In this document: positions 1,710 through 64,000 of the stretch, piece after piece | Layout of the letters: each line of letters starts with the position of its first letter | How positions within the stretch are numbered: position 1 is the first letter of the stretch | DNA from: Bacteroidota bacterium | GTDB lineage: Bacteria > Bacteroidota > Bacteroidia > Chitinophagales > LD1 | Direction of reading: 5' to 3' | Length of the DNA: 64,000 bases | Assembly: GCA_016722375.1 (NCBI GenBank) | Contig: JADKJG010000004.1 | Location: forward strand, 66,867-130,866 | Position numbers and translations under genes: made by a program | Notes under the pieces: model-generated | Told to the model about the DNA's origin: nothing | What the model saw: only the letters and a program-made list of their open reading frames with translations | The model's database searches: none

Positions 1710-3208
1710 TGTTCATTATACCCGCCATAGATATCATTGACGGACATTGCGTGCGCCTTTCGCAAGGCGACTATGCGCAGAAGAAAATCTACAACGAGAA
1801 CCCGCTCGAAGTCGCGAAAGAATTTGAAGCAGCAGGTATCGAGCGCCTACATCTGGTTGATTTGGATGGAGCGAAGTCGCATCACATCGTTAATCACGCC
1901 GTTCTTAAAGAAGTATCGGGCAACACCTCTCTGCAAATTGATTTTGGCGGCGGAATAAAAAGTGATGAGGATGTAAAGCTCGCCTTTGAAAACGGAGCAA
2001 AACAAATCACCGTGGGCAGTATTGCCGTAAAATCGCGCGAGACAGTTTTAAAATGGTTGAAGCATTATGGCCCCGAGAAAATAATTCTTGGTGCCGATGT
2101 AAAAGGCGAATCCATCGCCATCAACGGATGGCAGGAAAGCAGCTCGCTCAATCTTTTCGACTTCCTAGAAGATTACATTCAGCAAGGTATCCGGTATGTT
2201 ATCTGCACCGACATTTCTAAAGATGGCATGTTGCAGGGACCCTCCTTCAATCTTTATCAAAAAATTCTTTTGCGTTTTCCTGAAGTAAAACTGATTGCCA
2301 GCGGAGGCGTTAGCGAGATGAATGATTTAATCCGTCTGAACGAAATGGGTTTGTACGGCGCTATTGTCGGCAAGGCAATTTACGAGGGAAATATTTCGCT
2401 TGATCAACTCTCTTCATTTCAAAGCCCTTCCCTTCGGGGAGGGTTGGGAGGGCTTGCCAAACGTATCATCCCTTGCCTTGACATCAAAGATGGGCGCACG
2501 GTCAAGGGGGTCAACTTTGTCAACCTGCGCGATGCGGGCGATCCGGTGGAGCTTGCCAAAATTTATGCGGCCGAAGGAGCCGACGAACTCGTGTTCCTCG
2601 ACATCACCGCCACGCACGAGCGCCGAAAAACTTTGATTGAACTGGTAGAGCGCGTGGCGCAGAACATCAACATTCCTTTCACCGTTGGCGGCGGAATTGC
2701 CTCGGTGGATGATGTCTATGCCTTGTTGCAAAGCGGGGCCGATAAAGTTTCGGTCAACTCCGAGGCGGTGCGCCATCCGCAACTGCTGAATGAAATCTCT
2801 GACCGGTTCGGCAATCAATGTTTGGTGTTGGCGATAGATGCCAAAGAGGTGAATGGAATTTGGAAAGTATTTCTCAACGGCGGGCGACTGGAAACCGAAA
2901 GAGAATTGTTTGAGTGGGCGAAGGAGGGCGAGCAACGCGGTGCCGGTGAAATTCTTTTCACCTCTATGAATCACGACGGAACAAAGAACGGATTTGCGAA
3001 CAATGCCTTGCGGCAACTTTCTCAAACCGTCAACATACCGGTCATTGCATCCGGTGGCGCCGGAACCATGCAGCACTTTTTCGATACCTTCACCGAAGGC
3101 AAAGCCGATGCCGCTTTGGCTGCCAGCATTTTTCACTTTAAAGAAATCAGTATCCCCGATTTGAAAGCATATCTCAAACAAAAAGGATTAGTCATACGAA
3201 GCTATTAG
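1709..3208 (+). CDS. hisA/hisF: HisA-HisF in-frame fusion as assembled (ProFAR isomerase barrel about 1709-2425, linker, cyclase subunit about 2444-3208)
   Basis: ATG 1709 overlaps the hisH stop (TAATG). HisA motifs [10 protein letters not shown] and GGGIKS run through to GKAIYEG. The linker [14 protein letters not shown] follows, then His[20 protein letters not shown] through to ASGGAG. No stop codon lies between the two barrels. Confidence 0.8.
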
Positions 3209-3223
3209 GATGAAAAGATATTT

Positions 3224-3278
3224 CGCACAGAGGCACGGAGAATACAATTCTCGGCTGTTATCTCTGTGTCTCCGTGCG
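3224..3278. repeat. REP-like long hairpin (CGCACAGAGGCACGGAGA / TCTCTGTGTCTCCGTGCG) between hisF and hisIE
   Basis: 18-bp arms with 1 mismatch and 2 G-U pairs, and a 19-nt loop. It uses the same CACG..AGAG / CTCTG..CGTG word family as the hairpin at 8178-8270. Confidence 0.6.
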
Positions 3279-3312
3279 ATAAATAATAATTTATAAAAAG
3301 GAAAAACGGACT

Positions 3313-3909
3313 ATGAAAATTGATTTCACCAAAGGCGCGGGACTTGTTCCCGCCATCATCCAGGACGCTGCTACCGGTGCGGTGCTCATGCTCGGCTTTA
3401 TGAACGAAGAAGCCTTTCAGAAAACGCAGACCGAAAAGCGCGTCACCTTTTTCAGCCGCAGCAAAAACCGCTTGTGGACCAAGGGTGAAGAGTCCGGCAA
3501 TTTTCTTGATGTGGTTTCCATCCTGATTGATTGCGACCATGATACGCTTCTTATAAAAGCAAAACCCCACGGACCGGTGTGCCACACCGGTACCGATACC
3601 TGTTGGAATGAAAAGAACAGCGCCCCTCCGCTTGCTTTCCTTGCCGAACTGGAAGCCACCATCGCCGCGCGCAAAAATGCAGCGCCGGAAGATTCATACA
3701 CCGCAAAACTTTTCTCCAAAGGCATCAACAAGATTGCACAGAAGGTGGGCGAAGAAGCCACCGAACTCATCATCGAAGCCAAGGATGACAATCCGGATTT
3801 GTTTCTGAACGAAGCCGCCGATTTGTTGTTCCACTACCTCATCCTGCTGCGTGCAAAGGGCTATGGACTGGCCGATGTCATCACCGTGCTCGAAGGCCGT
3901 AAGAAATAA
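3313..3909 (+). CDS. hisIE: bifunctional phosphoribosyl-AMP cyclohydrolase / phosphoribosyl-ATP pyrophosphatase
   Basis: HisI motifs (FFSRSKNRLWTKGEESGN, CDHDTLL, GPVCHTG) are followed by a HisE region (YTAKLF, KVGEEATE). Confidence 0.9.
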   Translation: MKIDFTKGAGLVPAIIQDAATGAVLMLGFMNEEAFQKTQTEKRVTFFSRSKNRLWTKGEESGNFLDVVSILIDCDHDTLLIKAKPHGPVCHTGTDTCWNEKNSAPPLAFLAELEATIAARKNAAPEDSYTAKLFSKGINKIAQKVGEEATELIIEAKDDNPDLFLNEAADLLFHYLILLRAKGYGLADVITVLEGRKK

Positions 3910-4040
3910 GCAAATCATTTGGGCGGCTTACGGGCTTTCGGCTATATCTTTTTCGACTCGCTTATATTTTAAAGGATGAAAAAGGATGCCGCCTCTATCC
4001 CGGCCGCAGTGCAGCGCTCTTCATCAAGTTCTATAGATAA

Positions 4041-4067
4041 AAACAAAAGTCTTTAGGACGTTTGTTT
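4041..4067 (+). terminator. weak A/T-rich stem-loop downstream of hisIE
   Basis: AAACAAAAGTC-tttag-GACGTTTGTTT, an 11-bp stem with one mismatch followed by TT. Confidence 0.3.
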
Positions 4068-4100
4068 TTGAATAGCACAAAACAAATACTGACTGTGCAT

Positions 4101-4256
4101 TATAGCTCCGTAGGAGCTATATGTTTGGTAGTAAATAAACAGCCACTCATTCAATTTCCGTCGGAACGTTCGATACAAAACATTCGGTCGCCCCGATGGG
4201 GCTTGGCTTGGTTGACTGTAAATTCTCTACCAAAGGCTTTGACCCTACGGGTCAAG
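4101..4256. repeat. cluster of short GC hairpins with 3-nt loops (MITE/REP-like filler)
   Basis: TATAGCTCC-gta-GGAGCTATA (4101-4121), GCCCC-gat-GGGGC (4190-4202) and CTTTGACCC-tac-GGGTCAAGG (4237-4257). There is no convincing ORF. Confidence 0.4.
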
Positions 4257-4411
4257 GAATCAGTGCCACACATCTTTATATAAGCTTTCGAACACTTATG
4301 GGCACAGCCTACGCTCAGTTGGGTTTGATGTTTGCAGAGATTTTTATGCATTACTGCTACCATCCATTTCCCGCAACCAATATCTATTTATTGCGCGAAT
4401 ACAGCCCAAAA

Positions 4412-4655
4412 ATAAGGGCCCTTCGGCACGGCACAAGGGCCCTTCTCTTTCCGATGAGGACCCTTGTCTGACGGATGAGGGTTCTTCTCTGGCAGCGAAG
4501 GGCTCTCCTCTCTGCCATAAGGACCCTTATCCAGAGAATAAGGACCCTTGTTTATTGCGACAAGGACCCTTGACTGGCGCATGAGGTTCCTGTTCTGGAA
4601 AATGAGGGCCCTTGGGTGGCTGACAAGGACCCGAAAATTGAAAATAAGAGTCTAT
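4412..4655. repeat. 12-copy tandem array with 21-bp period, core AAGGRCCCTT
   Basis: Cores start at 4414, 4435, 4456, 4477, 4498, 4519, 4540, 4562, 4583, 4604, 4625 and 4646. The spacers are divergent. Confidence 0.9.
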
Positions 4656-4672
4656 GCTAAGAGCGTAAAACG

Positions 4673-4702
4673 CAAAAACCCCGCAAAAAGCGGGGTTTTT
4701 TG
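4673..4702. terminator. bidirectional rho-independent terminator
   Basis: AAAAACCCCGC-aaaaa-GCGGGGTTTTTT. It has an A-run on one side and a T-run on the other. It sits 25 nt past the stop of the minus-strand gene 4727-5389. Confidence 0.8.
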
Positions 4703-4726
4703 AATAAAATGAACCTTTGAAGGGGT

Positions 4727-5389
4727 TTAAGATGTTGCTCCTAAAGCAATAATAATAGAATTGGCGGCGCTCCAGGGACCTGCACCCGCAGAATTTACCG
4801 CCCGCACCTGTACCCAAACCCGCTGACCTGCATGAGCCGGATTGGAAAGGTCAATAGCAGTAGAAGAAACATCATGGTCGAACGGCACCCAGACGATGGG
4901 GTCTGTGCCAAAAGGGTCATTGAAAGTGTAGCGCATGTTGTACCAAATATGGCCGAAGTGATGCACGGCATCCCAATGCGCATCTATGTGTCCGAACAAG
5001 TCATTGTGCGTTAAAGAAAGATTCTGAGCCTGCGGCGGACTCGTAACATCGGGAGCATTGAAGTCCTGAATAAACATGTTAGCGCTTTCAATAATCGCCG
5101 GGTCGCCACCACTCACGTTTTGAACGTATGCCGTTACTTTTACGCCTATATCCATCGCTGCCTTCTTTTTCAGTTTAGAGTCGGCCACCGCCATGCTCAA
5201 CTGATGCTTTAGAGTGGTTACCAGCGTTTCGGCTGCTTCCCAGGCATCGGTGGCCAGAGTCCAGTCTGCCAAGGATGGAAGGGGTACTGAAAAATTAATA
5301 TTGCCGGTCATCGCTGCGATGCAGGCGCGGAAGAGGGCGATGACCACCGTGGCGGTCTTGCCATACATTTTTAAGATTGCTTTGCTCAT
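4727..5389 (-). CDS. hypothetical protein with helical N-domain and FN3-like C-terminal domain (paralogue P1)
   Basis: 220-aa ORF. It aligns with 28242-28850 (MTGN.NF..P.P.LAD, AYVQ, GG..II.S) and has an FN3-like tail (RVWVQVRAVNSAGAGPWS). Confidence 0.75.
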   Translation of the reverse strand: MSKAILKMYGKTATVVIALFRACIAAMTGNINFSVPLPSLADWTLATDAWEAAETLVTTLKHQLSMAVADSKLKKKAAMDIGVKVTAYVQNVSGGDPAIIESANMFIQDFNAPDVTSPPQAQNLSLTHNDLFGHIDAHWDAVHHFGHIWYNMRYTFNDPFGTDPIVWVPFDHDVSSTAIDLSNPAHAGQRVWVQVRAVNSAGAGPWSAANSIIIALGATS

Positions 5390-5482
5390 ATAGTTTTTGT
5401 TTTAGAACTGCAAAAGTATATGCGGCGGGCATTGCGGCAGAAAAAGGTGATGAATGGCCACCAAGTGGGTATGAACGGCGAT

Positions 5483-5908
5483 TTAGTCCGGTATTTTGGC
5501 CTTTATTTTTCCGTGCGGAAAATAAATTTCGCGCACTTTTTTGATGTGTGTCTTCGAAACGGCCACCGTCATTCCGTTGGACATTAGGAGGTGTAGTTGT
5601 TTACTGGCTGTTTTCGCCTGATAGCAGTCCACCACATGTTTGCGGTTGATAATCACCCCGCGATTGACGGTCATAAACTCGGGGAGCTTCAACAGGTGGC
5701 AGTCCTTTACGGTCAGCTTCACATAGTATTCTCTGGATTTAGGAGACCCGCTCCCTTCGTCCTGCTCCAAGTGGTGATACCGGATGTAGTTAGACAGCTT
5801 GGTGGCCAGCACCAGTTGGTCGTAAAAAATTCTAACAGATCGTTCGAAACCCTGCACAGGTAGCAAGAAATAATCATCCATAGCGATATTGGGTTTTTGG
5901 TGTACCAA
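5483..5908 (-). CDS. stand-alone LytTR-type DNA-binding domain protein
   Basis: 141 aa. LytTR-like core FMTVNRGVIINRKHVV through to MSNGMTVAVSKTHIKKVRE. No receiver domain. Confidence 0.6.
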   Translation of the reverse strand: MVHQKPNIAMDDYFLLPVQGFERSVRIFYDQLVLATKLSNYIRYHHLEQDEGSGSPKSREYYVKLTVKDCHLLKLPEFMTVNRGVIINRKHVVDCYQAKTASKQLHLLMSNGMTVAVSKTHIKKVREIYFPHGKIKAKIPD

Positions 5909-6094
5909 AATGACAATTGTGTATGCCTTGCTAAGATAAAGCGGAAAAGGGAAATTGTCAAGTGGGGGTTATTCAGCTATATGCTGGATGCTTGGAAGGG
6001 TGTGGGCTATGCCTACACCCAGGAGGCGGGATTCCACATTCGCTATGTTTAAATCGAAAAGCTCGACTACTCAAATAATCTTTTTATTCGCCCA

Positions 6095-7582
6095 ATGGCA
6101 AAACACCAACTGAAACCCCACACCATCTATTGCGGCGACAACCTCAAGATGCTGCAAGAAGTGCCCGACGAATCTGTTGACCTTGTTTATATAGACCCGC
6201 CCTTCAACAGCAACCGAAACTATGAAGTGTTTTGGGGCGATGCCGCCGAAAAGCGCGCCTTCAACGACCGCTTTGGCGATGCACAAGCCTACATAGACTA
6301 CATGCGCCCCCGCGCCGAACAACTTTATCGCGTGTTGAAAAAGACGGGCAGTTTCTATTTCCATTGCGACTGGCACGCCGACTCTTATGTGCGCCTCATG
6401 TTGGATGAAATATTTGGGGCAAATAATTTTCGCAATCATATTATTTGGCAAAGAACCAATGCACACAATGATGCAAAGAGTCAGTTTGGTGTAGTGAACG
6501 ATTCTATTTTCTATTATGCTAAATCAGATAAAACTTCTTTTAATGTTCAATACACTGCTTACGATGAAGATTACATCAAGAACTTTTACAGGTTCGATGA
6601 TAATGATGGGAAGGGAGTATATCGGATGGGTGACATGTCAGCACCAGCAGGTGGAGGAATGGCTGCAATAAACAAGAAAACCGGAAAGTCAAATGGATGG
6701 TACTACTATAAAGGATATGAACCACCAGAAAGAGGTTGGAGATATTCCGAAGAAACCATGAAGAAATTGGATGAAGAGGGTAAAATTTATTTTCCGATAG
6801 ATAAAAAAGGAGTTCCTGACTTTAAAAAGCGGCTGGCTTTCAAAAGATATTTGAACGAACAAAAAGGGCAATTGATTTCAAATGTCTGGACGGATATACA
6901 AAACCTGCAAGGTGCATCGAAAGAAGCATTGGGCTACCCTACACAAAAACCCATTGCGCTGATGGAAAGAATACTGGAAGCGAGCAGCAACAAAGGCGAT
7001 ATAGTGTTAGATGCTTTTTGCGGATGTGGCACTACTTTGGTGGCAGCGCAAAAGCTGGACAGAAAATGGATAGGCATAGACATTTCGCCCACCGCTTGCC
7101 GCGTGATGGCGCAAAGACTTTGGGATATTTTTAAACTGGATGAAGGCAAAGACTTTGAACTTTCCGACTTGCCACACACCGAAGAAGAACTGCGGCAGAT
7201 TCCGCACTTCGAGTTTGAGAACTGGGCGGTCATTGCCCTCGGCGGCATTCCAAACAAAATCAAAGTGGGTGATTATGGAATAGATGGAAAACTTTATCCG
7301 GTAGATTTAGTAAAGCAGAAGAAAACCGGCTCCGATTTGTTTGGCGACAGCGATATTTATTATCCCATCCAAGTGAAACAAAAAGACAAAGCGGGCCGAC
7401 CCGACATTGATGCCTTTGAAACCGCCATCCGCCGCGACGGCCGCCGCAAAGGCTACTTCATCTCTTTCGACTACACCTCCGATGCCATCAAAGAAATCAA
7501 GCGCCTCGACAAAGACGGCGAAATAGAAATTGTACCGATTACGGTGAAGGATTTGTTGCGGAAGGAGAGTTGGGGAAATTAG
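6095..7582 (+). CDS. beta-class N6-adenine/N4-cytosine DNA methyltransferase fused to a C-terminal Mrr-like (PD-(D/E)XK) restriction-endonuclease domain
   Basis: Motif IV VYIDPPFNS is N-terminal and motif I VLDAFCGCGTT comes later (beta permutation). The C-terminal about 130 aa (FEFENWAVIALGG, GDYGIDG, IQVKQ, GYFISFDYTSDA) match the Mrr catalytic-domain pattern. Confidence 0.8.
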   Translation: MAKHQLKPHTIYCGDNLKMLQEVPDESVDLVYIDPPFNSNRNYEVFWGDAAEKRAFNDRFGDAQAYIDYMRPRAEQLYRVLKKTGSFYFHCDWHADSYVRLMLDEIFGANNFRNHIIWQRTNAHNDAKSQFGVVNDSIFYYAKSDKTSFNVQYTAYDEDYIKNFYRFDDNDGKGVYRMGDMSAPAGGGMAAINKKTGKSNGWYYYKGYEPPERGWRYSEETMKKLDEEGKIYFPIDKKGVPDFKKRLAFKRYLNEQKGQLISNVWTDIQNLQGASKEALGYPTQKPIALMERILEASSNKGDIVLDAFCGCGTTLVAAQKLDRKWIGIDISPTACRVMAQRLWDIFKLDEGKDFELSDLPHTEEELRQIPHFEFENWAVIALGGIPNKIKVGDYGIDGKLYPVDLVKQKKTGSDLFGDSDIYYPIQVKQKDKAGRPDIDAFETAIRRDGRRKGYFISFDYTSDAIKEIKRLDKDGEIEIVPITVKDLLRKESWGN

Positions 7583-7618
7583 GGAAGAGATCCAGAAGCA
7601 ACAAAGTAAAATAGAAAT

Positions 7619-8089
7619 ATGTCTCAATCATCATTACAAGTGCTAATTGGAGTACTGTCAATATTGGTAGTATTAATTACCGTTTTTTTAAAAAAATCAC
7701 ATGATGAATTAAGAGATGTTAAGTCAAAACTATCTGAAAAAAAATTTGATACCTATAATGAAATACTGGCGGTGCTTTTTGACATTGTAAAGCAGCAACA
7801 GAAGCTAACGACAATATCAGAGGATGAAACTTTAAGTCGTCTAATGAATGTAAAGAGGGACTTAATGTTGTATGGAAATGATAAAATTATTCGAAAGTTT
7901 TTTGAGTGGGAAGAAAATCAACTGAAAGTTGGCTATCGTTTATGGAATTGGGCAGAATTGGCTGCTTTAGCAAGGAGAGATATGGCCTACCAATCTACAT
8001 CTATCACTGCCGACGATATTTTGAGATCTCTATTTAGAAATCGGCACGAGTATTTGGAATTCAAAGAGGAATTTATCCTCAAAAAATAA
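7619..8089 (+). CDS. hypothetical single-pass membrane protein
   Basis: 156-aa ORF with an N-terminal TM helix (VLIGVLSILVVLITVFL). It is AT-rich relative to its neighbours and starts 37 nt after the MTase stop. Confidence 0.55.
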   Translation: MSQSSLQVLIGVLSILVVLITVFLKKSHDELRDVKSKLSEKKFDTYNEILAVLFDIVKQQQKLTTISEDETLSRLMNVKRDLMLYGNDKIIRKFFEWEENQLKVGYRLWNWAELAALARRDMAYQSTSITADDILRSLFRNRHEYLEFKEEFILKK

Positions 8090-54400: not shown

Positions 54401-55006
54401 ATGAAACTGGAAACAGCAGTAAAGAAGGTTGCAGAATTCCTTGCAAGCAATCCTGGCTCTACAAAAGAGGCCATAGGTAAAGCCACCAATGTAAAGGGTA
54501 TCGAATTGACCAATGTTATAAAGCGCTTGCGAAAAGAAGAGCAGCTGGTCGAAGAATTTCCTGATGGGGAAGTGCCTACCTTCTCTATCAAAACCGAAGA
54601 GCAGACAGAAACTGTCACGAATGAAACCGAAATACCGGTTGAAGATGAGCAACTTCCTGCTAAGAAAGGCCGGAACAATGACAAGTATCAGTTCAACGGG
54701 AACAGCTATGGCAAGGGAAAACTTGTTCTTGAAGTAGTCAGGCAGTATGTGGCCGGACATCCTAAAACAACTTACAAGCAATTGAAGGAAATCTTCCCTG
54801 ACACCCTGCTAACCCGCTTTGGTATTGCAAAGTCAGAAAATGAGGCTCGTTCACTTTCGGGTGCGAGAGAAAGGTACTTTTTCAGTGAGCTGCACCAAAT
54901 CTTGCTAAAGGACAAAACAGTGGTGGTTGTGTGTAACCAGTTCACGGCTCAGAATATCCAGCCTTTCTTAAAAGCGGCCAAGGCCCTCGGGTTCAAAATC
55001 AAGTAG
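54401..55006 (+). CDS. hypothetical DNA-binding-like protein (N-terminal winged-helix-like, acidic linker, conserved C-domain)
   Basis: 201 aa. The N-terminal about 50 aa look wHTH-like. The C-domain runs KYQFNGNSYGKGKLVLEVV through to CNQFTAQNIQPF. The family could not be named with confidence. Confidence 0.5.
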   Translation: MKLETAVKKVAEFLASNPGSTKEAIGKATNVKGIELTNVIKRLRKEEQLVEEFPDGEVPTFSIKTEEQTETVTNETEIPVEDEQLPAKKGRNNDKYQFNGNSYGKGKLVLEVVRQYVAGHPKTTYKQLKEIFPDTLLTRFGIAKSENEARSLSGARERYFFSELHQILLKDKTVVVVCNQFTAQNIQPFLKAAKALGFKIK

Positions 55007-55036
55007 CATTCTTTTTTGTTGTCTCTCTCCATGGTT

Positions 55037-55070
55037 GAAACGGGCGCTCCAAAGGCGTCCGTTTTCATTT
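55037..55070 (+). terminator. imperfect stem-loop terminator
   Basis: GAAACGGGCGC-tccaaag-GCGTCCGTTTTC. Confidence 0.45.
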
Positions 55071-55185
55071 ATAGCAGTTCTGCTCAGTTTTATGACTAGG
55101 CATTGAACGTGGGCTCCTAATGACGTCGCTGCATTCCCTGCTTCTGCATTTCTTTTTTAAGGTGTCCAGTTTTCCAGTTGATCCG

Positions 55186-55216
55186 ATTCAATCATGTACA
55201 CGAATTTGATTGAATA
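55186..55216. promoter_or_regulatory. 9-bp inverted repeat ATTCAATCA-N13-TGATTGAAT (candidate operator)
   Basis: Perfect arms, located 60 nt upstream of ATG 55276. Confidence 0.35.
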
Positions 55217-55275
55217 CTGGCTGAGGATAAAAGGGGCCTATCACCTGTGTACCATGAACCCATTTGCAAGGATAA

Positions 55276-56403
55276 ATGTCTTTTCCTAAGTTTGGGTCTA
55301 TGACTTTAGAGAGATTAGCTTATACCCTGGCAAAAACATTAACGGAACCGGTGCGAGAATATTCTGATCTTGTATATACAGGTTTCATGGATTCTGTCGA
55401 AGTGCTCCGGGACGAATATCCGATAGATGAAGAATACAAAAAGGAGTTAATAAAGTTCGTCAAAGACAAATACACCTTGGTAGAAAAACATTGGCAGTAC
55501 GGCTCTTTTGACACTGCCCGGTTCCTGAAAAAATACATCTTAAAGAGCTTCCATAGTTTAGGCCCTGATGGCGGAACATATTTTGAACATCCCCAGATTA
55601 GGGGCTTGATGAAGCTCTATGAAAATAAATTCGATGTCAATTATAAATTTGATTACAAGCCGGGGAAGAATTTCGGAAAAGTGCTTGTTGTAGCAACAGC
55701 GAGGAAAGGCAAAAAAGAGAAAGAAATTGCTTTTGCCTTTGAATACCTAAAGTCGGTCATGACAAATGCAGCATGGGTGCTGGCATATTTGAAATTCAGG
55801 GAGAATTTCAAGAACGAACTCGCTGAAGATAGCTCAAGTTCTATTGAGCCAGAAAACACGAAGCATGAATACAAGCCGGAAAATAGTTCTAATAGAATGA
55901 AGTGGCGTGTTGACCGAAAACATCTTGAATCCATTTTTGGAAAATTGGCAAGGCAAACGCTAACAGAAGATGGCAGATTAACGCTTGTTGCGAAACCGAC
56001 AGAAATACAAAAGTTAATTGAACGAAATTTTGAATTCTCCGACACGAAACAAAAAGTGAATTATCCGGACAAGAATAGTCGCCTGATTTACAACGGGCAG
56101 ATGGTATCTTTTCTCAGGTTATTATTTTATCTGTCTGAGAAGAAAATGAAAGGAAAAGACAAGCCGGCTTTCTCACCACCGGATTCCTGGATAATCAATT
56201 TTGTGTGCAGAAACTTCATGCGATATAACAAACAGGGAGTGGAAGAAGAGATTCCGGTTAAGTCGGTCAAAGATGAATGGCTAAGAATCAGACGCAAATT
56301 TGATAAAGCGGGAACTGAGAAGCAATATGACACGCTGCGCGCCGGAAACACAAATCACAACCTGCTGCATATTCTCGAACCGGAACTTTCCATTTTTGTA
56401 TAA
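55276..56403 (+). CDS. hypothetical protein (375 aa)
   Basis: Long ORF with no recognised motif. Confidence 0.5.
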   Translation: MSFPKFGSMTLERLAYTLAKTLTEPVREYSDLVYTGFMDSVEVLRDEYPIDEEYKKELIKFVKDKYTLVEKHWQYGSFDTARFLKKYILKSFHSLGPDGGTYFEHPQIRGLMKLYENKFDVNYKFDYKPGKNFGKVLVVATARKGKKEKEIAFAFEYLKSVMTNAAWVLAYLKFRENFKNELAEDSSSSIEPENTKHEYKPENSSNRMKWRVDRKHLESIFGKLARQTLTEDGRLTLVAKPTEIQKLIERNFEFSDTKQKVNYPDKNSRLIYNGQMVSFLRLLFYLSEKKMKGKDKPAFSPPDSWIINFVCRNFMRYNKQGVEEEIPVKSVKDEWLRIRRKFDKAGTEKQYDTLRAGNTNHNLLHILEPELSIFV

Positions 56404-56422
56404 ATCCTTCCCGATACGCGCC

Positions 56423-56514
56423 TGTCGCCTGTCGCACCTGTAGCCTACTTTTTTTGTCGCTCCCTTGCTTAAACTGTGTCGCAGTATTGTCGCTGTCTTG
56501 CGACAAAAGCGACA
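56423..56514. promoter_or_regulatory. cluster of seven TGTCGC/GCGACA hexamers (candidate operator or centromere-like site)
   Basis: TGTCGC at 56423, 56430, 56455, 56477 and 56488. GCGACA at 56500 and 56509. The cluster ends 41 nt upstream of the ParB-like gene. Confidence 0.55.
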
Positions 56515-56554
56515 GTAGCATATCTCGAGCTTCACCGCTCAAAACAAAAAAGTT

Positions 56555-57469
56555 ATGTCTAGCGAAAAAACAGAAATCACAGAGTATGGACTCGTAAACG
56601 TGGACGAGTTGACAAGAGCGAAAGACCATGAAACTACATTTCCCTACACGGACACAACCGAGTTCGAGGGCACCAATGATTCCTACAAAAAATTCAAGCG
56701 AATTTTTCCGGTAGTGTATGTTATTATGAATATCAACGACGTACCGGTAAAGGTCGTGGTTGATGGATGGAAGTACGTAGTGTTTGCTCGTGCAAATGGT
56801 ATATCCGAGATATACGCCTGCGAGCTAACCGTCGAGAATCAGGAGGATTTGATTGCAATTATGATTCAGTTGCAGCGCACAAACCATCAATCCTACTTAG
56901 CGCTGTATTACATGATTGAGGCGCTTTGGGAAAAGCACTACCTTGGTAAGGGATACCGCAGTGACCTTCAGGAGAATGAGTTGGACAATCCGGTTGAAGG
57001 AGCAGATGGCAAGAAAGAAACAATCTACGACCGCATAGGAAGGGAGCTGAATCTTAAACCTCATAAGGTCAAATATCTCCGCAAGATTGGGCAGGTCAAC
57101 AAGCGTCAGTTTATTCAAATGGATAGCGAGCGGCCCAGTTTGTATAAACTGTATAAAGCATGCGTCAGTGAGCAGAGCGGTGATGCTCCTGCATTACCTG
57201 CCTATAAAACGCCGGTTTATCACTCGAACGCAACTCCGGTGCCTGTCTTCACTACTCCGACACCCGAAGCGAATGTTGTAACCCACACGTCAAACAGCAC
57301 CGGAACAAATAAAGTCCATGCGGATTCAGATCAGGCGAGCAGCACCAAGCGGGAAACGCCTATTGGAGGAATAATCAAACAGGACGGCGATTGCATTACC
57401 GTTCAGGCGATATGTCAGTGCTGCAGCAACCCAACTTTTTTAATCATTTCCAAAAGTCAACTACTATGA
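56555..57469 (+). CDS. ParB N-terminal-domain-like (ParB/Srx fold) protein
   Basis: VVVDGWKYVVFARANGISEIYACEL followed by IQLQRTNHQS fits the ParB-like nuclease-domain pattern. It has an S/T/P-rich tail ending in a Cys cluster. Confidence 0.5.
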   Translation: MSSEKTEITEYGLVNVDELTRAKDHETTFPYTDTTEFEGTNDSYKKFKRIFPVVYVIMNINDVPVKVVVDGWKYVVFARANGISEIYACELTVENQEDLIAIMIQLQRTNHQSYLALYYMIEALWEKHYLGKGYRSDLQENELDNPVEGADGKKETIYDRIGRELNLKPHKVKYLRKIGQVNKRQFIQMDSERPSLYKLYKACVSEQSGDAPALPAYKTPVYHSNATPVPVFTTPTPEANVVTHTSNSTGTNKVHADSDQASSTKRETPIGGIIKQDGDCITVQAICQCCSNPTFLIISKSQLL

Positions 57470-59529
57470 GTACACCTAATAACAAACCACTGAGGAAACG
57501 AATTATCGTCGTTTCACTTTTCTCTGGGATGGATTTGTTCTTATTGGGCATGGTCAAAGCAGGGATGCAGCCGGGATACGCTGTAGAAAAGAACTTCTAC
57601 GCGTGCCTGATGCACAAAGGCGTATTCAAGCACCCCGACGGCACACCGGTAATGGAACCTTTTGTTATAATAACTAAGGAGGAGTACACATTCAAGAAGA
57701 ACCACCGCGACAAGAACGGTAAGAAGGATATGGAAGATGAGGTGGGCCAGATCAATGGTGTTTATTACCGGACGAAGCTCATCCAGGAAATAAATGGAGG
57801 AACTATCCGGGCGGCCCTGGAGAAGAGGTATGGGAAGGACATCATCATCGTTGTCATAGGCGGCCCCCCTTGTCAGGATTTCACCAACCTTAACTCCGCC
57901 AAAAATACCGGCGAAGACAGCCGTAACCAATTAGTATTTGAGTTCCTGCGGATTGTGGAAGAGTTGAAGCCGGATGTAGCCCTGATGGAACAGGTTCCGG
58001 ACTTTGGTCCCAGTGGAAAGTTCGAAGAGATATATAATTCCTTTCTTGAAGATACGTTCAAGCTACCCTATGAAATCATGGACTGCGAGATGTGTTCAAT
58101 CCACTATCACGGTAGACAGCTTCGGTGGCGAAGGGTATTCCAGTTCGTTCATAAGAGTTACAACACCAAACCTGTATTCCCGAAACCAGAATTAAACAAT
58201 ACGGTATTGGTTAAGGACTTTCTGGACATTGACTACTTTGTGATGGGAGGTTACGACCGGGTGATGCGGCATCCAAACCAATACATGCTGACAGTGACAT
58301 CCGGGAATCCTACGGACTTCTTTAAAGGTGAAATAAAACGACCACCAACTATAGATGAACTCCTGGATTGCTTTGATGTCCCACGGGGTGGTTATCCAAT
58401 ACCTGAAGGCATACCCTTTCAGCAGAAACGGAAAGCAATAGGTAATGGTGTATGTGTCAGTGTGGCCTATGCTTTGGGTAAGACGGTTATCAGTGAGGTA
58501 TTGCGTCTAAAGCCAGATGGTGACGGTTATTTTATTCCTATCGATTCTTCGCCAGATAATCCAGACCTGATGCTGGTGGAGGTGCCACCAACGAATCCTG
58601 CACCGGATGGAGATACTGCTGTCGCTGATCCACTCGATGCCGCACCGGCAACCGACCCAACTCCTATTGAAGAGGAAGTCAAGGAAGAAACTACTCCTCC
58701 CACGGTGCTTCGTAACATCATAACGACAGACGCGAATCACAATAAGATTGAACCACCAAAAATCATCAGCAGCACGTCGCTAGAACAGATGCAGTTTCAG
58801 TCACTCAACTTTGATGGCCTTTGGAACGAATTCTTCGGTTATCCATCCATAAACTTCCATTGCCTTATTCACGGACTCTCCGGTCACGGTAAGAGCACCT
58901 TTGCAATTCAGTTCGCCAAATATCTCGCTGACTATTTCGGACGCGTCATTTATATCAGCGGCGAGGAAGGATTCTCCATGACGTTCAAAGACAAGTTTGT
59001 GAATAACGGCGCCGGGTCGGAGGCGCTTGACGTAGCCGACCTACGGAGCTATGATGATATAATCCAGCACGTGCCACGTTCCGCATACAACTTCATTTTC
59101 ATCGATAGCCTTAATACGATGAAGATTGACGTGAACAAACTAAAGGAGTTACGCACCATGTTTGAAAATACCGCATGGGTCACCATTTCACAATCCACTA
59201 AGGGCGGAGAGATGAGGGGTTCCTACGAAATCGTACACGACTCGGATGTAGCTGTCAAAGTGACTAATGGAATGGCGGTTACTACCAAGAACCGGTTCAA
59301 ACCTCTGGGCTCCAATTTTAGGGTGTTCAAACCGAATAACGATTCACAAAGTATCTTGGAAAGATACCACGACAATCCAGACGAGTCGCCTGGTACTCAA
59401 CCGTCATCCGACAATGGAGTCAGAATATCGAATCTGAAAATTCAGTTAGACGACGCTCTGGCCGCCGAAAACTTTGAACTCGCAGCAAAGCTGAGGGATG
59501 AGATAAATCGCATAGAGGAGCAGAAATAA
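57466..59529 (+). CDS. DNA (cytosine-5) methyltransferase fused to a RecA/KaiC-like P-loop ATPase and a C-terminal UVR motif
   Basis: C5-MTase motifs I (LFSGMD), IV (GGPPCQDFT), VI (MEQVPDF), VIII (QLRWRR) and X (IGNGV). A Pro/Asp-rich linker follows. Then Walker A GLSGHGKST and Walker B FIFIDSL. The sequence ends with ENFELAAKLRDEINRIEE. ATG 57466 overlaps the upstream stop (ATGA). Confidence 0.75.
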   Translation: MSTPNNKPLRKRIIVVSLFSGMDLFLLGMVKAGMQPGYAVEKNFYACLMHKGVFKHPDGTPVMEPFVIITKEEYTFKKNHRDKNGKKDMEDEVGQINGVYYRTKLIQEINGGTIRAALEKRYGKDIIIVVIGGPPCQDFTNLNSAKNTGEDSRNQLVFEFLRIVEELKPDVALMEQVPDFGPSGKFEEIYNSFLEDTFKLPYEIMDCEMCSIHYHGRQLRWRRVFQFVHKSYNTKPVFPKPELNNTVLVKDFLDIDYFVMGGYDRVMRHPNQYMLTVTSGNPTDFFKGEIKRPPTIDELLDCFDVPRGGYPIPEGIPFQQKRKAIGNGVCVSVAYALGKTVISEVLRLKPDGDGYFIPIDSSPDNPDLMLVEVPPTNPAPDGDTAVADPLDAAPATDPTPIEEEVKEETTPPTVLRNIITTDANHNKIEPPKIISSTSLEQMQFQSLNFDGLWNEFFGYPSINFHCLIHGLSGHGKSTFAIQFAKYLADYFGRVIYISGEEGFSMTFKDKFVNNGAGSEALDVADLRSYDDIIQHVPRSAYNFIFIDSLNTMKIDVNKLKELRTMFENTAWVTISQSTKGGEMRGSYEIVHDSDVAVKVTNGMAVTTKNRFKPLGSNFRVFKPNNDSQSILERYHDNPDESPGTQPSSDNGVRISNLKIQLDDALAAENFELAAKLRDEINRIEEQK

Positions 59530-59567: not shown

Positions 59568-61058
59568 TTAAGCAAGTGTTTTGAGGAACCGGTATATCAC
59601 CACCATCGCCCAGGTATCCAGTCCACAGTATTCGACGAGGTTCTTTCTTTCGGTTGACCAGTCTTTATCAGGTTCGGCCATCATCTTCATGAACAAGACA
59701 CTGGCATCATCGCCGTTATTCACAGTAAGATTCTTATAACTGAGCTTAGGTGCGACCACCGGCAACACCTGCTTGATGCTATACGAGCCGCTGAATTTGT
59801 AATGATAGAACCACTTCTTGTAGAAAGGGAGGGCAAGGTCAATCAAGCGTTCAATTACCGCCTCAATTTGTGATTCATACTTTGGAAACAAAATTGACAG
59901 GTGCCGCAACTTGGAGCGCTCAAAGCCGACGTTCCAAACCAGAATTGTCCCATCTGTGCCTAAGTCGCGAAGCAGAGTAATCAAAAAGTCTTCCCTGAAA
60001 TCTTTACCGGGTTCGGCAAGGTAAGCGCGGCTGACCGGTTCATAGTTTTTCGATTCAATGGTGTGAAGTGAATACTGAAAAGGCGTCTGTTCGTAAGGAT
60101 TTGTACGCTGGAATTTCGGGACGGCGAACCGGATGGTCTCAAAATCAAGGAAGTGAATCGGGTAAACAATCTTGTCAAGAAACTCTCTCAGTGGTTCCTT
60201 GTTCAGGTATATCCCGCGATTGATATGCGCTTCAACCACATAGTTATATGGCGGCTTAAACTGCTTCCATTCCTTTACATCAGAAATCTTACGGACACCT
60301 GAGTGGTACTGCCGGAATCGTTCTTCCGTTTTTCTATAATAACCAAGATCCAGAATGGATTCATCCGGTACATCCTTCCAGCAATGTTCTTTGAAATCAC
60401 AAGTCCAAGGGCTGGTACATTGTTTGCCTATGAGGGTTTCAGGGCAGTTACTACCGATCACTACGTTTTTTAGCTCGGCCACCATCTCGCTTATCTCGTC
60501 CTGCAAGGCCACCGCAAGTGGGTATACCGATTCAATCGTGAACAGCTTCTCAACTTCTATTTCACCGTGCCGTTCATATTCATTATTGAGGTGGATGATG
60601 GAAATATCCTTCAATTCAATCCCGCAATTAGTCATGACCCAAAATTGCAGTGCAGCGTCTGTGATATTGATGTCATGAACTCTAGTGGATGATTTTACCT
60701 CGTAGGCATACCATCCGTCTTCTTTCTTAACCAGTATATCCAGCGCCGCTAGAACGCCGTCGTACTGAAAAGCCGCCTCGTAAATCACGGGTGCACCTTC
60801 CGCCACTAACTTCACCGTCATTTCTATGGAAGGCTGATAGTTGTAGGGTGTGGCCGGACTTGCATCAACGCCACCGGGGAATAATTGATGCGCGAGTTCA
60901 CCGACCTGATGTCCCTGATCGAAAATGAACTGCTTGCTTTCAGAAATAGCGGGAATTAGGTCCCTTCTGTTCTTGTAAAGCCATAGGCTCTTTTTACAAA
61001 TACTACCGCGGATAAAGGTGGATTTAGAGAGGATGTGGTTCGTTTTATTGTGATTCAT
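59568..61058 (-). CDS. DUF2779-type protein: Cas4/RecB-like PD-(D/E)XK nuclease with Cys cluster plus DEDD-like exonuclease half
   Basis: N-terminus LSKSTFIRGSICKKSLWL. Nuclease motif AYEVKSS. Cys cluster C-TSPWTC-DFKEHC. The second half has HFLDFETI and YCGLDTWAMV. Confidence 0.6.
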   Translation of the reverse strand: MNHNKTNHILSKSTFIRGSICKKSLWLYKNRRDLIPAISESKQFIFDQGHQVGELAHQLFPGGVDASPATPYNYQPSIEMTVKLVAEGAPVIYEAAFQYDGVLAALDILVKKEDGWYAYEVKSSTRVHDINITDAALQFWVMTNCGIELKDISIIHLNNEYERHGEIEVEKLFTIESVYPLAVALQDEISEMVAELKNVVIGSNCPETLIGKQCTSPWTCDFKEHCWKDVPDESILDLGYYRKTEERFRQYHSGVRKISDVKEWKQFKPPYNYVVEAHINRGIYLNKEPLREFLDKIVYPIHFLDFETIRFAVPKFQRTNPYEQTPFQYSLHTIESKNYEPVSRAYLAEPGKDFREDFLITLLRDLGTDGTILVWNVGFERSKLRHLSILFPKYESQIEAVIERLIDLALPFYKKWFYHYKFSGSYSIKQVLPVVAPKLSYKNLTVNNGDDASVLFMKMMAEPDKDWSTERKNLVEYCGLDTWAMVVIYRFLKTLA

Positions 61059-61359
61059 TGCATGAAAATAGAGATAAGAAAATTAGAAACCCTCATCAGG
61101 TAAAATCTATTTTATATTGCGTGTTCTTAGAATGAACGGATATAAAAGAGCAAAATTAGAGTTACAGAATAATTCGACACTGAGGTCACAATCGAACAGT
61201 TATTCAGCTTATTTATTGAATCGCCAAAAACGGAATTTGATATAATGAATTTACCATTTGATGGTATCCTACTGAAAGAACGTCGTGAATTAAGAGACTG
61301 GAACTCTTTCATGTTAAAATTTAGAAGGAGGTGATGCCTTTTTTTGCTTATGGTTTGAG

Positions 61360-61731
61360 ATGCTAGTTGATAAATCTAAACTCAAGATTATTTCAGGTGA
61401 GAACCTTAATAAATATTTTCCAGCTCATTTATTGCCTTACCGCGACAAGGATGAATTTACAATGCCTTTGCCACATTTCTATAAGATGCAATTTTACTTT
61501 AGTTCCATTGAAACACTTATCGTTATAGGGTGGAAAGGTAATGAGGCATCGTTCGTCGAACAACTATTACAGCATGCTCGAAAGGTCAAAAAAGTAATTA
61601 AAGTTGACCCTGAGCCAGAATCTGTAAAGAAGAATCTCGTATCACTCATTTCAAGAGACTACGTTGTAACTAAAATTTATAATTCCTTTGAAAGTTTTGT
61701 GATGAGCAATTTTGAAAAAGACCTGAATTGA
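61360..61731 (+). CDS. hypothetical small protein (123 aa)
   Basis: ORF in an AT-rich segment. Its stop lies 8 nt before the next gene. Confidence 0.45.
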   Translation: MLVDKSKLKIISGENLNKYFPAHLLPYRDKDEFTMPLPHFYKMQFYFSSIETLIVIGWKGNEASFVEQLLQHARKVKKVIKVDPEPESVKKNLVSLISRDYVVTKIYNSFESFVMSNFEKDLN

Positions 61732-61738
61732 TACTACT

Positions 61739-63427
61739 ATGGACCGAGGTGTGAAATTTTCAGGTCATCCGGTTATATCCTATAAGGACATTTACGGGGA
61801 AATTGTGTCCGAGCAATTTGCAGATTTATTTAAAGATATTCCTACAAATGTTGTAATTGAAATTGTCTCAAACTTCATGGCTAAAATCCATACAGAAGAG
61901 ACCAGTGCTATTCATCAAGAAGAAATAGTAAAAAACTGGATTGAAAGATTTCCAAACCAAGATAGGAATGAAATCTTGGAAAAATTATCAGAATTCGATT
62001 TCATTTTTTTCAACAACGTATCATCTCTATTTTTCATTGAACATGCGTTACTTAATTTTCAGCCCCACAGAGAAATTGATGACCTAACTCCTAAAGAAGA
62101 GTACCAGCTATTCCGAGCATATTTAAAAGCTACACAAGAATGGACGGAGGCTCAGCATGCTTCGATGAATGTGAAGGCAATCAAGGATACGGAGGATTTT
62201 ATCAAACTTATACTACCTGCATATTTGCCTTACTATGAATTTCGAAAGTTCAAAACCTTTTGGATAGAGTTAGCTAAAGCGATTTATTTCTTCAAATTTA
62301 TTGAACGTGATAATAAATTAGGCCCCTATCTCAACGATTTCTTAACAGTTCAGAAAGTAGCAACTTGGGAGGAATATCTTTTTCGTTTAACCTCAATGTA
62401 CATTCAACCTTTTATATTGGGGAGAAAATCTGTTTTGATTGTTGATGATAAAGATGACGAGACGGACAAATTTCTTGAAAATATAGTGATTGAAGTTTCT
62501 GAGTTTAAGAAAGAGCAAGACTTTCTTAAACTCAGACTTAAACCGGTATACAAGTTGAGTAATCGGCACTTTTCGTTTTTCAATTTCAATTTTTTGGTCG
62601 ACAAAATATTTCAATCAATCCAATTTGACTTTGCCACAATATTGAAAAATAAAGGAGTAGTAAAAGGCTTAGACGAGTTTAAAACCACTTACTACTCTGA
62701 AGAATTCGCGGAAAAATATTTTCTCAACGAAGTGGTGCCTTATCTAATTGGGAAACGAGATAGGGTTATTTCATTAAATGGAGATAAATTAGCTAATCAG
62801 TTGGGTGCTAAAGGGCCGGATTATTATTTAAGGTGTGGCACCAAAATATTTGTCATTGAATTAAAGGATATATTGATTTCAGCTAAAGTAAAATGGTCGC
62901 TTGATTTTGATGTAGTCAAAGATGAAATACTTAGAAAGTTGATGGTAAACGAAAGAGGGAAACCGAAAGGGATAACTCAACTGGTTAACTTCATTACAAC
63001 CTTTAAAAAAGACGGGTTTTTCTTTGATAAACTTAATATTGTGGACGCGAATATCTATCCTATTTTGATTTGCACCGATGATTCTTTAAATGCATTCGGA
63101 GTAAATCGAATTCTTACAACCGAGTTTCGAACTATGTTGCGTTCTCATTCTATTCCTGCAAAAGTTAATGACCCTATTTTAATCCATATTGATACAATAA
63201 TTCAATATCAGGATATAATACATGATAAGAAAATCCCGGTCGCACATCTTTTCAATGCCTATATCGACTTCGTTACTAGGCTAAATAAGTGGGATGAAAT
63301 TCCATTCCATTGGTTTATATCCTTCAAAGATTTTTTACCCAAATACTTATATGATAAAGGGATCCGGGTATCTTTGTTTCCGAGAAGTCTGGGAAAGGTG
63401 CTTTCCGAAATCATTAAAGAGAAATGA
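61739..63427 (+). CDS. hypothetical 562-aa protein with a PD-(D/E)XK-like motif in the C-terminal third
   Basis: GPDYYLRCGTKIFVIELKD fits D-x13-E-x-K, followed by KGITQL. The gene is AT-rich. Confidence 0.5.
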   Translation: MDRGVKFSGHPVISYKDIYGEIVSEQFADLFKDIPTNVVIEIVSNFMAKIHTEETSAIHQEEIVKNWIERFPNQDRNEILEKLSEFDFIFFNNVSSLFFIEHALLNFQPHREIDDLTPKEEYQLFRAYLKATQEWTEAQHASMNVKAIKDTEDFIKLILPAYLPYYEFRKFKTFWIELAKAIYFFKFIERDNKLGPYLNDFLTVQKVATWEEYLFRLTSMYIQPFILGRKSVLIVDDKDDETDKFLENIVIEVSEFKKEQDFLKLRLKPVYKLSNRHFSFFNFNFLVDKIFQSIQFDFATILKNKGVVKGLDEFKTTYYSEEFAEKYFLNEVVPYLIGKRDRVISLNGDKLANQLGAKGPDYYLRCGTKIFVIELKDILISAKVKWSLDFDVVKDEILRKLMVNERGKPKGITQLVNFITTFKKDGFFFDKLNIVDANIYPILICTDDSLNAFGVNRILTTEFRTMLRSHSIPAKVNDPILIHIDTIIQYQDIIHDKKIPVAHLFNAYIDFVTRLNKWDEIPFHWFISFKDFLPKYLYDKGIRVSLFPRSLGKVLSEIIKEK

Positions 63428-63442
63428 AAGAAACATTTATAT

Positions 63443-64000
63443 CTAAGCCCAATTTACGGAAATAGTCGGTGGTGGTATCGACAGTGTGTCAAAAGCCTCT
63501 ATGAAAATCTTGTTAGCTAGCGCCGCGTCATCTGGTAAGCACATTATTGAATCATGAATCGTCACAAATCTGATTCCCTTCTCTATGAGCCGAGGCGCCA
63601 CAACCTGATACATCAGCGCCGCTTCGCTCCGCTGCATGAGGCAGGCGACAAGTGTATAGGCATTGTTGCTTTTCGCATACCGGAACTTCTTTCCGGGAGG
63701 CCGGATTATATCTCTTAACTTGGGAAGTAACATTTCATCCGCATGTTTTATATCCTGAAACATCTTGTGAACGCTGGAAAATGCGTGCCGAAACATCTCG
63801 CGGAACCTGCTATTTTCTCCGTAAACGCGGGTTTTAGAGAATAATACAGAAGAGAAAAACAACTTCTTTATCTTATCTCTCGCTTCCTTGTCTTTGGTAT
63901 CTAAGCCCATACCCCCCATAATGAACTCATATAACCTGCCTTCCACACACAATCTTCTATATAGTAGAAAGTCCGCGTTCCGGGTGTATGGTTCAGCGAT
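63443..64000 (-). CDS. C-terminal part of a divergent family-A polymerase-like protein (5' end outside window)
   Basis: The frame is open to the window edge. Motif-B-like RDKIKKLFFSSVLF, MQRSEAA (compare PMQGTAAD) and motif-C FVTIHDS (compare VHDE in Pol I and IHDS in T7 RNAP). The tail is SVNWA. Confidence 0.55.
   Translation of the reverse strand: MAEPYTRNADFLLYRRLCVEGRLYEFIMGGMGLDTKDKEARDKIKKLFFSSVLFSKTRVYGENSRFREMFRHAFSSVHKMFQDIKHADEMLLPKLRDIIRPPGKKFRYAKSNNAYTLVACLMQRSEAALMYQVVAPRLIEKGIRFVTIHDSIMCLPDDAALANKIFIEAFDTLSIPPPTISVNWA

Follow-up and report, generated by a model that had tools for sequence, protein, structure and literature searches.

An uncatalogued PD-(D/E)xK protein family of Bacteroidota, encoded in a low-GC block, as a candidate single-polypeptide sensor-nuclease of bacterial defence

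A low-GC block and its genes

The window analysed here is a 64,000-nucleotide (nt) stretch of a Bacteroidota bacterium genome (GenBank assembly GCA_016722375.1, contig JADKJG010000004.1, forward-strand positions 66,867 to 130,866). Towards its right end is a block of low guanine-plus-cytosine (GC) content that carries, on the plus strand, a 123-residue open reading frame (ORF) followed by the gene of a 562-residue protein with a predicted PD-(D/E)xK nuclease core. A preliminary description, made from the sequence alone, had suggested that the two form a separately acquired cassette of a small partner and a nuclease. Both ORFs and the AT-rich segment around them are present as it gave them, with a spacer of 7 nt (61732–61738) in place of the 8 nt reported. 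The features of the block are as follows, with the evidence for each in brackets.

61059–63442, no strand: low-GC block, GC 0.335, from the start of the DUF2779 gene to the stop of a 169-residue ORF (profiles of GC and of GC at third codon positions (GC3), independent contigs)
61059–61359, plus strand: AT-rich non-coding spacer of 301 nt, GC 0.32 (ORF list, homology searches)
61360–61731, plus strand: 123-residue ORF, 3′ remnant of a SIR2-like gene, corresponding to its C-terminal third (alignments, hidden Markov model (HMM))
61739–63427, plus strand: 562-residue gene, predicted PD-(D/E)xK nuclease of an uncatalogued family (ORF list, homology, AlphaFold2 (AF2))

The block is compositionally foreign to its surroundings. 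Its GC of 0.335 compares with a mean of 0.43 elsewhere (standard deviation 0.028, z = −3.5) and is the minimum among all 2.4-kb windows of the 64 kb, so that the difference first perceived by eye is confirmed by windowed computation. In a 500-bp sliding profile GC lies at 0.32–0.35 over about 61000–63500 and at 0.45–0.47 on either side, recovering beyond the block, and neither shift is more than about 100 bp from where the flanking gene ends. GC3 is 0.33 in the 123-residue and the 562-residue ORFs and 0.51–0.53 in the flanking genes; the 123-residue ORF, the spacer and the nuclease gene share the same low GC.

Both junctions of the block are covered, with identical sequence, by independent contigs of other activated-sludge runs, which rules out an assembly artefact. 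An empty-site variant was sought in other metagenomes and none was found, every contig having the same arrangement. Direct or inverted repeats and target-site duplications were searched for at the flanks of the block, with none detected, and scans for sigma-70 and Bacteroidota −7 promoters returned matches at or below chance. A search for RNA runs recovered none. The spacer has no long ORF, as previously described, and no significant homology to anything tested.

The large protein belongs to a widespread uncatalogued family

A word-index search recovered 16 relatives of the 562-residue protein, and an exhaustive HMM search with the 16-sequence alignment extended these to 2,338 representatives at E ≤ 1e-3 (976 at E ≤ 1e-30), each standing for one cluster at 50% identity. 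Nearly all are ~560 residues long. The gene caller's product for the window, P0001, has 558 residues, a length that would fit a GTG start at 61751. Among 26 loci from species-representative genomes, 24 are from Bacteroidota, the other two being from Fodinibius and from a metagenome-assembled genome of Candidatus Gastranaerophilales. A homologue is carried by eight Hymenobacter plasmids, annotated in RefSeq as 'hypothetical protein' each time, and by none of 50,697 phage records.

Neither the 562-residue nor the 123-residue protein has a significant match in Pfam, PADLOC v2, NCBIfam or PHROGs. The defence module suspected earlier is not named by PADLOC-DB v2.0.0, where the window protein has no match at E ≤ 0.1; seven other members likewise gave none there, except for a weak and presumably spurious match to BrxF (P0010, E = 0.0035). 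Seventy-nine members compared with Pfam yielded scattered sub-threshold matches to models of the PD-(D/E)xK clan (NERD, PDDEXK_9 and L_protein_N). In sequence and profile searches of the PDB, two family profiles (of 16 and of 144 sequences) and the tandem member P0115 matched no chain even at E ≤ 10, and a literature search found no description of the family.

Several members depart from the single-module form. The whole module is duplicated in tandem in P0115 (1,185 residues), with D…ExK kept in both halves; P0111 has an extra, second nuclease domain; and P0082 is extended at its N terminus by 417 residues that weakly match the RES domain (E = 1e-3, under the Pfam cut-off). Modularity of this kind, with tandem, extra-nuclease and RES-like forms, is typical of defence effectors.

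The C-terminal half is a predicted PD-(D/E)xK nuclease

The full-length AF2 model, computed from the 16-sequence alignment, has a predicted local distance difference test score (pLDDT) of 84.9 and a predicted template modelling score (pTM) of 0.85. The protein is divided in the model into three parts, within which the conserved positions are found as listed.

61739–62653, plus strand: N-terminal region, residues 1–305 (AF2, Foldseek, isoelectric point (pI), conservation)
62654–63238, plus strand: predicted PD-(D/E)xK core, residues 306–500, basic, pI 8.4 (AF2 secondary structure, Foldseek, conservation)
62711–62713, plus strand: codon of E325, 95% conserved, in the first helix of the nuclease core (family alignments)
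62819–62866, plus strand: putative catalytic motif D361-x12-E374-x-K376 with Y363 and R365; D, E and K 100% conserved (family alignments)
62978–62980, plus strand: codon of Q414, 100% conserved, in the helix after the ExK strand (family alignments)
63239–63427, plus strand: C-terminal helical tail, residues 501–562, pI 9.4, plus the stop codon (AF2, pI)

The predicted fold of the core is α-β-β-β-α-β, the arrangement that defines the PD-(D/E)xK superfamily. It comprises helix 311–337, which contains E325, strand 343–347, strand 362–366 with D361 at its start, strand 369–376 with E374 and K376, helices 390–425 with Q414, and strand 438–445. An acidic residue at the start of β2 and a (D/E)xK on β3, both conserved, complete the hallmarks of the superfamily. 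The motif singled out in the preliminary description (GPDYYLRCGTKIFVIELKD) is present, with a spacing of D361-x12-E374-x-K376 and not D-x13-E-x-K, and the restriction-endonuclease-fold signature then read from it is a genuine, conserved site in the C-terminal half.

D361, E374 and K376 are invariant in each of the sets of 16, 144 and 147 homologues, beyond what chance would give, and the refuting case named in the preliminary description, a motif not conserved in homologues, is clearly not borne out. Across the 144–147 full-length representatives, which share just 20–45% identity with the query, Q414 is invariant too, and R266, E325, R365 and K385 are at least 95% conserved. Judged from these alignments, the active site is under strong purifying selection.

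Comparison of the full model with the PDB by Foldseek gave partial matches that are almost all PD-(D/E)xK nucleases (best E = 2e-3, none reaching E ≤ 0.001, template modelling (TM) scores of 0.2–0.44). The top match is Upx (PDB 9wuf; probability 0.99, E = 2e-3, query-normalised TM 0.26), the second group comprises Nt.BspD6I and its small subunit R.BspD6I (the latter with target-normalised TM 0.44, probability 0.89), and McrC, Hjc, LmuA, DdmD and HerA-DUF follow more weakly. Viral structures returned weak nuclease-fold fragments only. The structure prediction recommended in the preliminary description gives a PD-(D/E)xK fold for the core; the N-terminal domain has no PDB match, and global similarity is weak by TM score.

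Predicted fold and conserved residues together make a strong case for placing the C-terminal half in the PD-(D/E)xK superfamily, as a genuine though uncatalogued branch. E325, D361, E374, K376 and Q414 probably form a metal-dependent active site, and the 562-residue protein would be expected to have nuclease activity.

The N-terminal domain has no structural counterpart in the PDB

The long N-terminal region that the preliminary description had called unrecognised has indeed no match in the domain libraries or among the folds of the PDB. Residues 1–230 are modelled as all-α, and residues 231–305 form a small β-hairpin/helix sub-domain with conserved R266, P269 and F296. Modelled alone, the domain has a pLDDT of 82.8 and a pTM of 0.80. 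A Foldseek search of the PDB with these 305 residues gave no match (best E = 2, TM < 0.2) and retrieved neither Upx (9wuf) nor BspD6I; because the N-terminal domain alone matches nothing, the matches of the full-length model stem from the nuclease half. A resemblance of this domain to the recognition regions of Upx or of BspD6I/FokI is accordingly rejected at the domain level.

No known DNA-reader fold or domain (SRA, winged helix, DUF3427 and similar) was detected in the region. The domain is acidic, with a pI of 5.35 as against 8.4 for the nuclease core, which hints at something other than reading of DNA and would better fit a sensor or regulatory role. We propose such a role for it.

Genomic contexts of the nuclease gene

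Open reading frames were called and clustered in 30 metagenome and genome loci containing a homologue of the large gene. No gene cluster is common to more than three of the 30, and the nuclease gene therefore travels alone. Defence genes found within two genes of it, in several loci, include Type I and Type IIG restriction-modification (R-M) systems, a prokaryotic Argonaute (pAgo), ThsB, PD-T4-1/PLD, NsnA, AbiV and DUF559. Also adjacent are genes of mobile elements: resolvase, XisH/XisI, VapE and YWFCY, with a conjugative transposon (CTn)-type integrase beside the closest homologue and DUF3853/DUF3987 beside another. Homologues of the large protein are often found among defence and mobile-element genes. 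A cognate methyltransferase is not conserved alongside, methyltransferases being present in just a few neighbourhoods; the nearest methylase in the window (57391–59529) is in the higher-GC flank, with the DUF2779 gene between.

At one locus (L001:3104–7692) a SPARTA pair, composed of TIR-APAZ (3104–4480, E = 1.6e-146) and a short pAgo (4483–6000, E = 6e-198), is followed without a gap by a homologue (6001–7692). The three genes may form one operon, with the nuclease as a companion of SPARTA. The tandem and RES-fused variants, together with this apparently operonic association, hint at further modular systems.

On one Hymenobacter plasmid the homologue adjoins MmeI, a Type IIL R-M enzyme, and on others it is beside an integrase, IS3 and HigB. 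In three further plasmid loci (L038, L040 and L042) it lies just downstream of a metal-resistance block of P-type ATPase, cupredoxin and AraC genes, and in two of these AbiEii/DUF6088 and traN/M/K follow. The homologues of these three form a divergent sub-branch (about 24% identity) with a single, recurrent plasmid position. Another plasmid copy (L041) is split into two ORFs.

The 123-residue ORF is a remnant of a SIR2-like gene

Alignments with homologues of 203–345 residues place the 123-residue ORF solely against the last third of a SIR2-like family, of which about 20–30 members are detectable and whose intact members have ~340–440 residues. Longer members begin with an invariant KPHGSWNWGW, and the longest (285–345 residues as called) add FNQDTIL and an N-terminal GAGAS; the copy at locus L033 is longer still once upstream homology is counted. 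The order GAGAS, FNQDTIL, KPHGS is that typical of SIR2-like NAD-binding domains, and the intact homologues match the SIR2_2 and PADLOC SIR2 models weakly, all under curated thresholds. Retained in the window copy are the PYRDKDEFTMP and IGWKGNE motifs; absent from it are the NAD-binding glycine motif GAGAS, FNQDTIL with its N/D, and KPHGSWNWGW with the histidine of KPHGS. Whereas the intact homologues resemble SIR2-like defence NADases in having the glycine, N-D and His motifs in the typical order, the window copy differs in being a C-terminal third that has none of them.

The family HMM matches the ORF from its methionine (HMM positions 21–142, E = 2e-60) and gives no significant SIR2-like homology upstream of 61360. 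A faint colinear trace out of frame, 'LLKERRELRDW' at 61269–61328, is non-significant (E about 0.04 in a tiny search space). The missing ~200–300 residues could not be encoded upstream, because just 301 nt precede the ORF before the start of the DUF2779 gene. This spacer and the truncated span mark the 123-residue ORF as a catalytically dead 3′ fragment: by its alignments it is the tail of an unrelated SIR2-like gene and not a partner of the nuclease. The gene from which it came was probably defence-associated. In its simplest history, a low-GC piece of a donor island would have been acquired whose left border, set at that time or by trimming afterwards, cuts through the SIR2-like gene.

The distribution of the two families agrees with this assignment, and the two-gene cassette first suggested is not supported. 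None of the 30 loci with a homologue of the large gene contains the SIR2-like ORF, and the annotation around the six inspected plasmid homologues does not show it; reciprocally, the nuclease gene is found in none of the four SIR2-like family contexts examined (L005, L006, L033 and L036). A 505-residue gene upstream of the L001 homologue, considered as an intact form of the ORF, was rejected, as it is the short pAgo of that locus. The SIR2-like family (L033:135–1467; P0184, P0188, P0190 and P0191) is itself uncatalogued, and an intact copy of it adjoins TIR-COR, PIN and LRR-Roc-COR genes.

Comparison with known nuclease systems

McrC, LmuA/Cap4-type, DdmD, HerA-DUF4297 and Shedu-type proteins all work, to our knowledge, with nucleoside triphosphatase (NTPase) or helicase partners or fused to them. 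The window protein resembles these nucleases in its catalytic fold, its defence-island habitat and its weak partial fold matches; it differs in that the family has no conserved partner, no NTPase domain and no match to a PADLOC model.

Nt.BspD6I/R.BspD6I and the FokI-type IIS enzymes are closer in layout, since their ~580–600 residues comprise an N-terminal domain and, behind it, a PD-(D/E)xK cleavage domain at the C terminus. In contrast with these, the present family has no conserved cognate methyltransferase, an N-terminal domain of unrelated fold and no sequence similarity. Membership of Type II or IIS R-M is rejected, since no cognate methylase is conserved.

Upx is a single-protein anti-phage defence that is activated by phage terminase, and mutation of its ExK abolishes protection (PMC13099982, PMC13601566). 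Its 1,272 residues are arranged in three domains, with a β-strand-containing sensor that binds terminase by β-augmentation, its catalytic residues are D1161, E1176 and K1178, and HpUpx occurs in Bacteroidota (PMC13099982, PMC13601566). The Upx family consists of three-domain proteins of ~1,200–1,300 residues, and the PSI-BLAST seeds by which it was defined are the large sensor at the N terminus and the conserved central part (PMC13601566). The window protein is like Upx in consisting of a single polypeptide that lacks both partner genes and an NTPase, and in having a large unannotated N-terminal region followed by a PD-(D/E)xK core with D…ExK; the C-terminal PD-(D/E)xK with ExK that characterizes Upx is, in the alignments, present and invariant here. 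The tandem member P0115 also nears Upx in size and has two nuclease modules. Differences are its length of 562 residues, its all-α N-terminal domain, a search with which did not retrieve 9wuf, and a 60-residue tail after the core, which in Upx is C-terminal. Neither the family HMMs nor P0115 detected any sequence or profile similarity to the Upx chain (E ≤ 10), and the global TM is 0.26. We do not assign the protein to Upx, from which it departs in size, domain plan and sensor and to which no sequence similarity connects it; the idea of a 'half-Upx' is likewise rejected as membership, the tandem forms notwithstanding.

The effector and its logic are familiar, the family and its N-terminal fold are uncatalogued, and the protein would work most like the single-polypeptide sensor-nuclease defences.

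Proposed function and alternatives

We favour, with a probability of about 0.5, the reading that the block represents one functional unit, a stand-alone and horizontally mobile defence protein that combines a sensor with a nuclease. The 562-residue protein would be a self-contained DNA nuclease, its C-terminal PD-(D/E)xK domain fused to an acidic, mostly α-helical N-terminal domain of ~300 residues that restrains the nuclease. The N-terminal domain would release or target the nuclease in response to a cue that comes from a phage or some other foreign DNA element entering the cell, and the outcome would be one-protein sensor-effector defence comparable with that of Upx or of restriction enzymes that act alone. 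The gene would move alone, as cargo of the conjugative elements, plasmids and defence islands of Bacteroidota, and the SIR2-like gene would have been cut when the low-GC piece of a donor island was acquired or rearranged. The genomic contexts make a defence function plausible. More tentatively, and with rather less confidence than in the reading itself, the family may be a widespread (>2,000 clusters) and almost exclusively Bacteroidota immune sensor-nuclease, in which a new sensor fold unleashes a FokI/Upx-like domain.

Several observations weigh against defence as the function. A number of neighbours are housekeeping or metal-resistance genes, and the association with defence genes is qualitative. 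The structural matches of the model to known nucleases are weak globally (TM 0.2–0.44), and the sequence and profile searches connect the family with no solved structure. PADLOC v2 dates from 2023, and newer catalogues might already list the family. The 123-residue remnant is an intact ORF with all family-invariant residues of its span, and it may have a residual role.

The principal competing explanation, which we regard as unlikely, takes the protein for a restriction enzyme acting on its own, either of Type IV (modification-dependent) or an orphan of Type IIS. Its N-terminal domain would recognise modified bases or a particular DNA sequence, and its FokI/BspD6I-like domain at the C terminus would cut nearby, no protein trigger being involved. 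The layout of ~560 residues, with an N-terminal domain and a C-terminal PD-(D/E)xK domain, is like that of Nt.BspD6I (alignment over 578–599 columns), the highest target-normalised TM is that to the R.BspD6I small subunit (0.44, probability 0.89), R-M genes are often neighbours, and the lack of a conserved adjacent methyltransferase is as expected for Type IV. However, the N-terminal domain alone matches no BspD6I, FokI, winged-helix, SRA or other reader fold (best E = 2) and is acidic (pI 5.35), the global TM to BspD6I is only 0.21, and there is no sequence similarity to restriction endonucleases of the PDB or to PADLOC R-M models. A little less likely again is that the gene works for the mobile element itself, through competition between plasmids or integrative and conjugative elements, exclusion of rivals or post-segregational stabilisation. 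Its recurrence as cargo of conjugative plasmids near tra genes, integrases, insertion sequences and toxin-antitoxin pairs would agree with this, as would its absence from the 50,697 phage records; yet many copies are chromosomal and beside classical anti-phage systems, the position relative to transfer or integration genes is not fixed, and a service to the element overlaps with defence and does not exclude it.

The two remaining explanations we hold to be highly improbable. One is a two-gene cassette, of toxin/partner or abortive-infection type, whose 123-residue product regulates or neutralises the nuclease; it would draw on the shared strand, the 7-nt spacer and the identical low GC of the two ORFs, and on the intactness of the smaller one with its family-invariant residues. 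It is disfavoured by the nature of that ORF, a truncated third of a SIR2-like protein, by its absence from all 30 loci and from the annotation beside the six plasmid homologues, by the SIR2-like family never adjoining the nuclease family in L005, L006, L033 or L036, and by the want of a conserved neighbour of any kind. A housekeeping nuclease of DNA repair or recombination in a chance low-GC patch deserves slightly less credence still: many PD-(D/E)xK nucleases are repair enzymes and Hjc resolvases are among the weak fold matches, but the composition is foreign, the contexts are variable, include plasmids and have no conserved synteny, and the distribution is patchy, with duplications, fusions and one split plasmid copy.

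Most discovery screens rely on Escherichia coli or Bacillus systems, which leaves under-sampled the immune repertoire of Bacteroidota, dominant as these are in gut, soil and wastewater communities. The family described here is large and strongly constrained, is not represented in Pfam, NCBIfam, PHROGs or PADLOC v2, and carries a confidently predicted N-terminal fold without a structural relative. Should it prove to be a defence protein, the few one-protein sensor-nuclease systems, Upx among them, would gain a new sensor domain. Candidates for defence nucleases are numerous; this one is compact and directly testable. The locus also gives reason for caution, as adjacency and shared composition made a gene fragment resemble a partner.

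Flanking genes

To the left of the block, on the minus strand (59568–61058), is the DUF2779 gene, named correctly in the preliminary description (Pfam E = 2.6e-38). Its product has a Cas4-like PD-(D/E)xK segment (Pfam Cas_Cas4, E = 1.4e-5; PADLOC Cas4, E = 3.5e-6), and a second nuclease-fold gene is therefore directly beside the block. To the right, also on the minus strand, is the 169-residue ORF (63443–63952). Searches of Pfam, NCBIfam, PADLOC and the sequences of the PDB return nothing significant for it and lend no support to the label 'polymerase-like' that it was previously given.

Beyond the DUF2779 gene is a 712-residue fusion of unusual architecture (57391–59529, plus strand), comprising a C5 cytosine DNA methylase, a RadA/KaiC-like ATPase segment and a C-terminal UvrB/UvrC (UVR) motif. 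Read from its TTG start, the ORF overlaps the preceding one by 79 nt, and its true start may therefore be the ATG at 57412. Upstream of it are three successive ORFs of 201, 375 and 304 residues (54401–57469, plus strand) without family assignment, the first of which has a weak helix-turn-helix/MarR-like PHROG match only; these three and the methylase gene belong to the same higher-GC island. Type IX secretion system (T9SS) sorting domains encoded by nearby genes indicate a Bacteroidota host.

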